Shown here: positions 1 through 1,692 of the stretch, in pieces
Layout: each line of letters begins with the position of its first letter
How positions within the stretch are numbered: the first letter of the stretch is position 1
Assembly (NCBI RefSeq): GCF_003334815.1
Contig: NZ_QOWO01000097.1
Strand: one strand, 5' to 3'
Origin: Escherichia coli
Lineage (GTDB): Bacteria; Pseudomonadota; Gammaproteobacteria; Enterobacterales; Enterobacteriaceae
DNA: 1,692 nt
The notes under the pieces: model-generated
Databases searched by the model: none
Seen by the model: the letters and a program-made list of their open reading frames with translations, nothing else
Told to the model about the DNA's origin: nothing
Translations under genes and position numbers: made by a program

Positions 1-23
1 GAAAAACGAGTATTTTTAGTCAT
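1..23 (-). CDS. IS3-family transposase OrfA, 5' partial (first 7 codons, M-T-K-N-T-R-F), continues beyond the window
   Basis: ATG at 23..21 on the minus strand, preceded by GAGG (Shine-Dalgarno-like) in the IS leader. Mirrors the partial CDS at 1673..1692. Confidence 0.7.
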
Positions 24-77
24 CCTGTTTACCTCTTTCTCAGGAAGTTTAGTCTCCAGGATTCCCGGGGCGGTTCA
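1..77 (-). mobile_element. IS3-family (IS629/IS1203-like) left terminus: terminal inverted repeat plus leader and start of orfA; element extends leftward out of the window
   Basis: Minus strand reads TGAACCGCCCCGGGAATCCTGGAGACTAAACTTCCTGAGAAAGAGGTAAACAGG-ATGACTAAAAATACTCGTTT, which I recognise as the IS629/IS1203 left end (IS3-family TG...CA terminus; OrfA begins MTKNTRF). Positions 4-77 are the perfect reverse complement of 1619-1692. Identification is from memory, not a database search. Confidence 0.8.
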
Positions 78-467
78 GCGCCACTGATGCAGTCACTGTA
101 TGACTGGATACAGACTCAGATGAAAACACTGTCGCGTCACTCGGATACGGCAAAAGCGTTCGCATACCTGCTGAAACAGTGGGAGGCCCTGAACGTGTAC
201 TGCAGTAATGGCTGGGTGGAAATCGACAACAACATCGCAGAGAACGCCTTACGGGGTGTGGCCGTGGGCCGGAAAAACTGGCTGTTCGCAGGTTCCGACA
301 GCGGTGGCGAACATGCGGCGGTGTTGTACTCGCTGATCGGCACATGCCGTCTGAACAATGTGGAGCCAGAAAAATGGCTGCGCTACGTCATTGAACATAT
401 CCAGGACTGGCCGGCAAACCGGGTACGCGATCTGTTGCCCTGGAAAGTTGATCTGAGCTCTCAGTAA
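78..467 (+). pseudogene. IS66-family transposase (TnpC-like), 3' fragment of about 129 codons, 5'-truncated at the IS629 junction
   Basis: Translation ...[84 protein letters not shown] carries the hallmark C-terminal motifs of IS66-family transposases ([28 protein letters not shown]). The frame stays open leftward to the IS629 end at 77/78, so the gene has lost its 5' part. TAA stop at 465-467. The Met at 87 used by the ORF track is internal, not a real start. Confidence 0.85.
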
Positions 468-469
468 AT

Positions 470-497
470 ATCAATACGGTTCTGGTGAGCCGCTTAC
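470..497 (+). mobile_element. Probable right terminal inverted repeat of the IS66-family element
   Basis: Sequence ...GGTGAGCCGCTTAC ends at 497, about 30 bp after the transposase stop. IS66-family termini are 5'-GTAAGCG...; on this strand the right end should read ...CGCTTAC-3'. The inner boundary of the repeat is not determinable without the left end. Confidence 0.55.
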
Positions 498-592
498 GCT
501 GAAATTTACACCAGATAAAAAACATACAGAAACAATCCTGTTATGTAAAATCCGGAAAAAATGTCAGAAATGTGATCAGAGTTGTGTTTTAC

Positions 593-749
593 GGAGGGGA
601 GTGCACTGCGCACGGACTAATCGGAACCTATCGGCTGAGCGATATCGATCCGGAAGCGTATCTGCCTCATATACTGAGAGTTTTGCCGGAATGGCCTTCC
701 AACCTGTTGATGAACTACCTCCATGGAACGTAGTGCTCACCAATAAATA
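593..749 (+). pseudogene. Second IS66-family transposase 3' relic, frameshifted
   Basis: One frame gives GGECTAHGLIGTYRLSDIDPEAYLPHILRVLPEWPSN, paralleling [39 protein letters not shown] in the first fragment. After about position 703 the homology continues only in the +1 frame (PVDELPPWNVVLTNK*, TAA at 747-749), paralleling [15 protein letters not shown]. This implies a 1-bp deletion. No clean ...CGCTTAC terminus follows. Confidence 0.6.
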
Positions 750-791: not shown

Positions 792-1319
792 TTAATCCTT
801 TTTGTTGAGTGTCACTGGACCATAGACCATAAAAACACAAGTTGAACCAGATACTCCCCTATAACCTCCCTGTCCATCGCCGAGATAACAGGCAAGAGCA
901 GTAAATTCCCAGGCATCATCCATAGACGCAGCAATTTTGCGTGTGGTTAGTGTTTCTTTGCCATATTGCTCACCAAAGTCGTGCACGCGCCGGGCATATT
1001 CTCCAAGTGACTCGCTGACTGACGGATGGTCCCACCCCCATAACCAGGTGCTGTCTTCAGTATCGTAAGTGCCAACCACTTGAACAGGTGCTGTGACCAT
1101 GATCTCTTTTTCATCATTGGTGAAGGTGATTGTACCTGTATTAAGATCAACATCCCACGCAGCAGTATCAAGTCCCCACATTTCTATAGCGGCTTGTGTG
1201 AGTAACTGCATTTCGTTATTCGCTCGTGCAATTGTGAGATCTGGCTCTGAAAGAATTGCTGTGTTAGCACTGGAATCTTTATTCTTTCTGCCAAAAAGCT
1301 TCTTGAATAAATTAGTCAT
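792..1319 (-). CDS. Hypothetical protein, 175 aa, family not recognised; predicted soluble
   Basis: Uninterrupted minus-strand ORF. ATG at 1319..1317 is preceded by GGGAGAG with about 5-7 nt spacing. TAA stop at 794..792. The ORF track's 192-aa version begins at an upstream TTG (1370..1368) with no Shine-Dalgarno, so the ATG start is preferred. Protein: MTNLFKKLFGRKNKDSS...WDVDLNTGTITFTNDEKEIMVTAPVQVVGTYDTEDSTWLWGWDHPSV...DDAWEFTALACYLGDGQGGYRGVSGSTCVFMVYGPVTLNKKD. No long hydrophobic segment (no transmembrane helix or signal peptide evident). Confidence 0.75.
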   Translation of the reverse strand: MTNLFKKLFGRKNKDSSANTAILSEPDLTIARANNEMQLLTQAAIEMWGLDTAAWDVDLNTGTITFTNDEKEIMVTAPVQVVGTYDTEDSTWLWGWDHPSVSESLGEYARRVHDFGEQYGKETLTTRKIAASMDDAWEFTALACYLGDGQGGYRGVSGSTCVFMVYGPVTLNKKD

Positions 1320-1331: not shown

Positions 1332-1397
1332 GTTTTCTGCAAACACTTTGGCTGAATTATTAACGTTCAAATTTTGTCAGACATGTGTATACCCTAA

Positions 1398-1414
1398 CCT
1401 GACATCAGGCCTGA
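1398..1414. promoter_or_regulatory. Nested dyad symmetry upstream of the 175-aa gene; candidate operator or promoter-associated site
   Basis: CCTGA(1398-1402)-CA-TCAGG(1405-1409)-CCTGA(1410-1414). TCAGGCCTGA at 1405-1414 is a perfect 10-bp palindrome. Lies about 80-95 nt upstream of the ATG in an AT-rich region. A -35-like TTGAAC (minus strand, 1370..1365) and a -10-like AATAAT are nearby but not at canonical spacing. Confidence 0.3.
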
Positions 1415-1618
1415 TAATGAAAAACTATCAGAATAAAATCGTCATGAGTATTTATTGAGACAAGTAATTAAAGGTCATAGATTCATTTATGACATATTCA
1501 GGCGTGATAGCGGCATCGTGGTAGTGACTCAGTCCTTTAAACCCGCAATATAAAACGAAAAAACAGACCGTTTTTCAGAAGATTAGCGCATTTATTGAGA
1601 AGTTTAAAGGCGTGGGAG

Positions 1619-1692
1619 TGAACCGCCCCGGGAATCCTGGAGACTAAACTTCCTGAGAAAGAGGTAAACAGGATGACTAAAAATACTCGTTT
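1619..1692 (+). mobile_element. IS3-family (IS629/IS1203-like) left terminus: terminal inverted repeat plus leader and start of orfA; element extends rightward out of the window
   Basis: TGAACCGCCCCGGGAATCCTGGAGACTAAACTTCCTGAGAAAGAGGTAAACAGGATGACTAAAAATACTCGTTT. Exact reverse complement of window positions 4-77. Confidence 0.8.
1673..1692 (+). CDS. IS3-family transposase OrfA, 5' partial (M-T-K-N-T-R...), continues beyond the window
   Basis: ATG at 1673-1675, 54 nt inside the IS terminus, preceded by GAGG. Same codons as the left-hand copy. Confidence 0.7.

Follow-up and report, generated by a model that had tools for sequence, protein, structure and literature searches.

The res sites of Tn3-family transposons are about 120 bp long and consist of sub-sites made of inverted 12-bp half-sites, with the centres of sub-sites I and II about five helical turns apart (PMC12217951). 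In Tn501/Tn21-type elements res lies upstream of tnpR, with sub-site III next to tnpR and recombination occurring within sub-site I, and elements that exchange at sub-site I share sequence only on the tnpR side (PMC7157771). A working site of the Tn21 subgroup, lying directly upstream of tnpR-tnpA, carries the tnpR promoter and is bound by resolvase as three dimers, one at each of sub-sites I, II and III; it recombines at the centre of sub-site I to resolve cointegrates. Footprints of the Tn21 and Tn1721 res sites are reportedly to be found in Rogowsky 1985 and are said to be given in Liebert 1999 as well. The target-site duplications made by Tn3-family transposons are 5 bp, sometimes 6 bp, in length (PMC13367494).

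Here we examine a window (the whole stretch of 1,692 nt that was analysed) that matches, at 100% identity, positions 63168-64859 of RCS85_pI (NZ_LT985321.1), an IncI1-type plasmid from E. coli ECOR 3, and in which a first-pass annotation had reported an 11-bp direct repeat. The repeat is indeed present: ATTTATTGAGA occurs without mismatch at 1450-1460 (copy 1) and 1590-1600 (copy 2), both on the plus strand. As short exact direct repeats in IS-rich DNA, the two 11-mers resemble the target-site duplications of transposons and insertion sequences. We conclude, with a probability of about 0.9, that they are coincidentally identical parts of two unrelated relics that are joined at 1525|1526. Copy 1 lies in a decayed res of the Tn21 subgroup and copy 2 in the last 31 codons of the type I restriction gene hsdR, and their exact identity required both a decay mutation in the first relic (TTGACA to TTGAGA) and the particular synonymous codon choices of the present hsdR allele. 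The repeat is not real as a biological feature, and the finding is an ordinary one.

The repeat and its surroundings

The two copies are 140 nt apart from start to start, with 129 nt in between. The region had been described as free of ORFs, which is fair: between 1371 and 1618, where A+T amounts to 63%, the sole open reading frame is one of 32 amino acids with a TTG start (1455-1553). The interval between the copies (1461-1589) is composed of two parts: its left 65 nt form one run of Tn21-type res with copy 1, and its right 64 nt form one run of hsdR 3' end with copy 2. A repeat search of the window revealed no terminal inverted repeats at 1461 or 1589, the ends of the interval, and a scan of the window revealed no terminators. 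The best Rfam match at a permissive E-value (2dG-I, 17.8 bits against a gathering score of 51, E = 3.3) straddles an IS end and is insignificant.

Other similarities in the window are of little consequence. A third copy of the 11-mer with one mismatch (ATTTACTGAGA, 459-469, minus strand) overlaps the stop codon of the IS66 tnpC relic, and we judge it, like the other short repeats of the window, to be a product of chance. A 26-nt direct similarity (73%) between the first codons of the DUF6882 gene on the minus strand (1294-1319, ATGACTAATTTATTC...) and the left part of res sub-site II (1420-1445, ATGACGATTTTATTC...) is probably also due to chance in AT-rich DNA.

The features of the window are listed in Table 1. 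The two IS629-like copies (3768-5077 and 6619-7928 in the 11.7-kb region around the window, L015) bracket a segment of 1541 bp, 78-1618. Their target-site duplications are visible by comparison with uninterrupted relatives, and because these duplications, GCG and GGAG, are separate, the two copies must have inserted independently; both insertions are found in one plasmid record only. The bracketed segment is potentially an invertible or composite-transposon-like unit. In about 45 E. coli chromosomes the module corresponding to 601-1525 lies downstream of haemagglutinin/CdiA, VENN-domain and 'adhesin' fragments (in L001, with DUF6882 at 4192-4719), and in L002 the DUF6882 module adjoins cdiB-cdiA. 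The DUF6882 protein matched no NCBIfam model, and its gene may once have been a transposon passenger or may be an immunity-like orphan.

The first-pass annotation had offered an old target-site duplication as one origin of the repeat, in which case 1461-1589 would be a small mobile element. Exact direct repeats 140 nt apart in non-coding, IS-rich DNA do fit such an origin, but the interval has no terminal inverted repeats and is a chimera of res and hsdR, its halves belonging to different families. Using an artificial empty-site query (130 nt of left flank ending in one 11-mer, followed by 130 nt of right flank), we searched 5,426 complete E. coli genomes and found no site at which the two flanks adjoin a single 11-mer; the query's two halves were covered together only in records of the filled arrangement, which match in two pieces that span 400 nt. 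Moreover, a length of 11 bp fits no element present, the IS629-like copies having made duplications of 3-4 bp. True duplications such as GCG and GGAG abut the ends of their elements and have an element-specific length, whereas the 11-mers abut no element and sit in different older sequences. The comparison with homologous loci that had been suggested thus finds the intervening 129 nt to be no insertion, with a breakpoint inside them and no empty site, and we give a target-site duplication practically no credence.

Table 1. Features of the 1,692-nt window (coordinates of the window; boundaries within the res relic are predicted)
Feature	Position	Strand	Remarks
IS629-like end, second copy, inverted	1..77	-	100% identical to the other copy; target-site duplication GCG
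IS66-family tnpC 3' end and terminal repeat	87-499		terminal repeat GTAAGCG... on the minus strand, ends ~499; cut by IS629-like insertion at 77|78
Second IS66 transposase relic	572-733		frameshifted C-terminal fragment, separate from the 87-499 relic
DUF6882 gene	792-1319	-	WP_000182867.1 (RefSeq); abuts res sub-site I on its left
Relic res segment (putative)	1375-~1512	+	decayed, Tn21-type Tn3-family
Relic res sub-site I, crossover (predicted)	1375..1404	+	30 bp, TGTCAG...CTGACA, central A|T at 1389|1390; dyad in all eight aligned sequences
Relic res sub-site II (predicted)	1426..1460	+	35 bp; half-sites TGTCAGAATAAA and TGTCAATAAATA in intact elements
Copy 1, ATTTATTGAGA	1450..1460	+	right half-site of sub-site II (predicted), overlapping mutated tnpR -35 (TTGAGA, 1455-1460)
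Relic tnpR promoter (predicted)	1455..1483	+	-35 TTGAGA, 17-nt spacer, -10 TAGATT; from consensus scan and alignment
Relic res sub-site III (predicted)	1473..1494	+	22 bp, GGTCATAGATTC...TGACA, nearest tnpR; holds -10 TAGATT (1478-1483)
Decayed tnpR leader and first ~9 nt of tnpR	1497..1525	+	start codon lost, cut at 1525
Novel joint	1525..1526	.	left-module matches stop at 1525, hsdR matches start at 1526
Type I restriction R-subunit gene (hsdR) 3' fragment	1526..1618	+	31 codons, frame from 1528
Copy 2, ATTTATTGAGA	1590..1600	+	gcA TTT ATT GAG Aag = A-F-I-E-K, near the C-terminus of truncated hsdR
IS629-like (IS3-family) left end	1619..1692	+	terminal inverted repeat and orfA start; 1310-bp element, target-site duplication GGAG

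Copy 1 and the putative res relic

The segment 1388-1501 matches unannotated DNA at 82-88% identity in about 30 plasmids of Klebsiella, Citrobacter, Serratia, Yersinia, Enterobacter and Pectobacteriaceae, and the BLAST homology of the left module fades past 1501. In each of the five intact loci examined (L009-L013) the segment ends about 12 nt 5' of a gene for a serine recombinase of 186 aa (MKGQRIGYIRVSSFDQNPERQ...), and in four of them a co-oriented Tn3-family transposase gene comes next (none is listed downstream in L010). The transposase scores 1024 bits against the NCBIfam Tn3 model NF033527 and the recombinase matches the structures of the Tn3 and gamma-delta resolvases over its full length; NCBIfam holds no TnpR-specific equivalog model.

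We located the sub-sites by symmetry analysis together with an alignment (A1) of the window, L001 and six homologous elements from other plasmids that are either intact or cut by IS26. The half-sites of the three dyad-symmetric sites begin with (T/C/G)GTCA, and 53.5 bp separate the centre of sub-site I from that of sub-site II. Invariant columns start at 1390, the centre of sub-site I, and on its left side the elements all differ from one another in sequence and in adjacent genes, which is the signature of resolvase-mediated exchange of left-hand modules (PMC7157771). The intact elements read ATTTATTGACA with a perfect TTGACA, and their sigma-70 promoter (TTGACA, 17 nt, TAGATT) spans sub-sites II and III, a placement that resembles that of the tnpR promoters of Tn3 and gamma-delta (PMC12217951). 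Their tnpR start consists of GGAGG, a spacer and ATGAAAGGTCAACGT.... The sub-site boundaries and the promoter assigned here are predictions drawn from dyad symmetry, spacing, conservation and consensus, and for the promoter it is the position and the consensus match that point to tnpR. Judged by position, architecture and exchange point, each read through the homologues, the left relic appears to be a res of the Tn21 subgroup, and it lacks integrity, so that we call it a relic.

Decay of the site is evident at eleven otherwise invariant positions at which the window differs from all intact elements, including 1427, 1459 and one core of sub-site III (1489). Both GTC cores of sub-site II are mutated in the window (G to A at 1427 and C to G at 1459). 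At 1450..1460 the six homologous elements read TTATTGACA, and only the window and L001 have the G at 1459; through this change, seen in the E. coli relic only, the hexamer TTGACA has become TTGAGA and the TGTC core of the half-site TCTC. No tnpR was found in the 11.7-kb region around the window, and the relic res site is probably inactive.

L001-type genomes lack the hsdR fragment and already have the G at 1459, which argues against conversion between the two copies. Past the breakpoint, L001 matches tnpR in register at 10 of 12 further positions of A1, a match that is not significant by free local alignment, and tnpR seems to extend 12 nt further in L001-type genomes than in the window. As to the order of events, we infer that the mutation completing the 11-mer identity most likely predates the juxtaposition of res and hsdR.

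If the 11-mers were a functional pair of protein-binding sites, copy 2 might serve, for example, as an extra resolvase half-site or as the site of a DUF6882 regulator. Copy 1 does lie, in intact elements, within the predicted resolvase-binding half-site, but the GTC core has been lost from the window's version and the locus is without a resolvase gene, and copy 2 is explained by codon conservation, all of its differences being synonymous. The arrangement is found, moreover, in a handful of near-identical records and so shows no independent conservation. We consider a functional pair very unlikely.

Several observations were made on the homologous loci themselves. In Citrobacter freundii p680_1 (L012) a class 1 integron (1931-3613, with intI1, blaVIM-1, aac(6')-Ib-cr and aadA1) borders the homologous res on the left, a placement that fits the res-hunting insertion of Tn402-type elements beside Tn21-type res. 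The res relic may resemble the Tn5036/Tn1696 backbone, in which an integron sits beside res as it does in this plasmid. In two further loci (L007, 2950-3095, and L014, 3501-3611) IS26 cuts the res segment just past sub-site III, upstream of an ABC-F ATPase gene (WP_065813436.1), which is another independent truncation of the res/tnpR module.

A CdiA toxin tail was also considered for the segment around copy 1, where a minus-strand frame ending in ...DYHDAAITPEYVINESMTFNYLSQ* (with copy 1 read as S-Q-stop) abuts a CdiA-like 'adhesin' fragment in L001. A joined query of 76 aa matched the adhesin part only and recovered no homologue with the tail, and a longer homologue of the adhesin part (P0002) continues with a different sequence. 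This candidate was dropped because the res homology explains the segment.

Copy 2, the hsdR fragment and the joint

To the right of the joint, intact hsdR genes are collinear with 1526-1616 over their last ~100 nt and end 13 nt past the match, and the segment is found at 84-93% identity within annotated HsdR coding sequences in more than 1000 records. The IS629-like insertion cuts the fragment 11 nt before the stop codon, and the sequence 5' of 1526 is the res/tnpR relic, so that no complete hsdR coding sequence is present. Compared with HsdR of strain RSHH22, all 30 of 30 amino acids are identical and 7 of 90 nt differ, every one of them synonymously. Other hsdR alleles read ATTTATTGAAA (L004) or GTTTATTGAGA (L005 and L006) at copy 2. 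A metagenome-assembled genome of Wohlfahrtiimonas, a distant gammaproteobacterium, has the exact 23-mer GCATTTATTGAGAAGTTTAAAGG around copy 2 in the 3' end of its hsdR as well; there the hsdR frame runs off the end of the fetched DNA and no second copy of the 11-mer lies nearby. Together, the synonymous-only differences and the Wohlfahrtiimonas 23-mer indicate that copy 2 is conserved coding sequence.

An unannotated hsdR 3' relic was also noticed in E. coli HH194M (L006, 3001-3076), between an IS903B copy and a tRNA-Leu gene, which shows that stray hsdR tails recur at rearrangement-prone sites.

We counted the classes of matches to the window in the 5,426 complete E. coli genomes. About 45 genomes (at least 24 among the matches listed) match 601-1525 only and then diverge; they have copy 1 but lack copy 2. 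Another class, of more than 1000 records, matches 1526-1616 only, within annotated HsdR coding sequences, and has copy 2 but lacks copy 1. The joined arrangement occurs in six records. The joint is clean, without microhomology, and copy 1 is 65 nt and copy 2 64 nt away from it; it is the scar of a rearrangement that brought the hsdR 3' fragment next to the res/tnpR relic, and it owes nothing to the 11-mers. The homologies on either side, the breakpoint between them, the codon pattern and the geometry of the sub-sites are all direct observations. Since the copies belong to two unrelated relics that are joined between them, the repeat is coincidental and no trace of an insertion or deletion.

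Chance expectation and comparison with known systems

An exact direct repeat of at least 11 nt was present in 28% of dinucleotide-preserving shuffles of the whole window, and one with its copies within 200 nt in 6.9% of local-composition shuffles. Restricting the analysis to the 248-nt stretch lowers the frequency of an exact 11-mer repeat to 0.4% of shuffles, a restriction chosen post hoc. In real DNA (83 kb of unrelated loci) there are 0.37 close exact 11-mer pairs per 1692 nt. With two gaps, the match of the 11-mers extends to 21 of 25 nt (ATTTATTGAG--AAGT--TTAAAGG) at a Smith-Waterman score of 28. A score of at least 28 was reached in 2% of shuffled windows (0.7% if the separation is at most 240 nt), and an equal or better gapped similarity was found in 7 of 49 (14%) real windows of 1692 nt, real DNA being more repetitive than shuffled DNA.

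The 25-nt gapped similarity is thus nominally unusual against naive shuffles, and the repeat exceeds chance only weakly, and not against real DNA. Statistics alone are insufficient to settle the origin of the repeat, which is decided by the comparative evidence. Chance in AT-rich DNA, which had also been put forward in the first-pass annotation, is the only one of its readings that is supported, the repeat being found in 28% of shuffles and its copies in unrelated relics.

The gapped extension over 21 of 25 nt might be taken to mean that both copies arose from one sequence by local duplication and diverged afterwards. The flanks, however, share nothing beyond those 25 nt, and each copy has a deep family of its own in which the other is absent (res throughout the Enterobacterales, hsdR as far as Wohlfahrtiimonas). 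Ancestral res also differs at position 10 of the 11-mer, and a local duplication is extremely improbable.

A connection between the repeat and the rearrangement could take the form of res-hsdR microhomology that guided illegitimate recombination or deletion, or of a pair that is itself a deletion scar. The joint does fall between the copies, and the gapped 25-nt similarity is rarer in shuffles, but the joint is more than 60 nt away from either copy and has no microhomology of its own, and similarity as good or better is found in the 14% of real windows given above. Recombination at the 11-mers would leave one copy. The deletion scar that had been proposed fails in the same way, as a finished deletion between direct repeats leaves a single copy and two are present here; we hold any such connection to be highly unlikely. 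It is likewise highly improbable that the relic res is a hot spot for res-hunting elements of the Tn402/Tn5053 type or for a resolvase acting in trans, or that the 25-nt similarity favours juxtaposition or recurrent 140-bp deletions, and we saw no support for these possibilities.

The preferred reading, a coincidental identity between parts of two relics, serves mainly as a caution, since in AT-rich plasmid DNA riddled with IS elements a short exact repeat mimicked the footprint of transposition. The coincidence is one between two independently constrained motifs, a resolvase half-site with a -35 box on one side and the codons for A-F-I-E-K on the other. As a by-product, a stretch of ~250 nt that is blank in all records examined can be annotated as a probable res relic with the tnpR promoter, joined to an hsdR tail. 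Besides the IncI1 plasmid of ECOR 3, related plasmids and chromosomes carry the stretch, which documents a history of nested rearrangements. Neither relic is new in kind, and knowledge of Tn3-family resolution and of type I restriction is unchanged.

As two short direct repeats 140 bp apart, the 11-mers resemble the substrates of slipped-strand or RecA-independent deletion. Direct repeats of 11 bp at this distance could in principle mediate a future 140-bp deletion. They differ from such substrates in that no single-copy deletion product was found among the genomes searched, and a deletion of this kind would at most result from the repeat and would not account for its origin. The fragment to the right of the joint differs from hsdR in that 31 of ~1038 codons remain, with no promoter and no N-terminal part, and resembles the hsdR 3' end in being collinear with it, in keeping the frame and in having synonymous changes only. 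The left relic differs from Tn21-type res in that tnpR and tnpA are gone, the start codon is lost, and both sub-site II cores and the -35 box are mutated in the window. Its homologues share with the res of Tn21, Tn501 and Tn1721 a length of ~120 bp, three dyad sub-sites, a position 5' of co-oriented tnpR-tnpA and what appears to be an embedded promoter.
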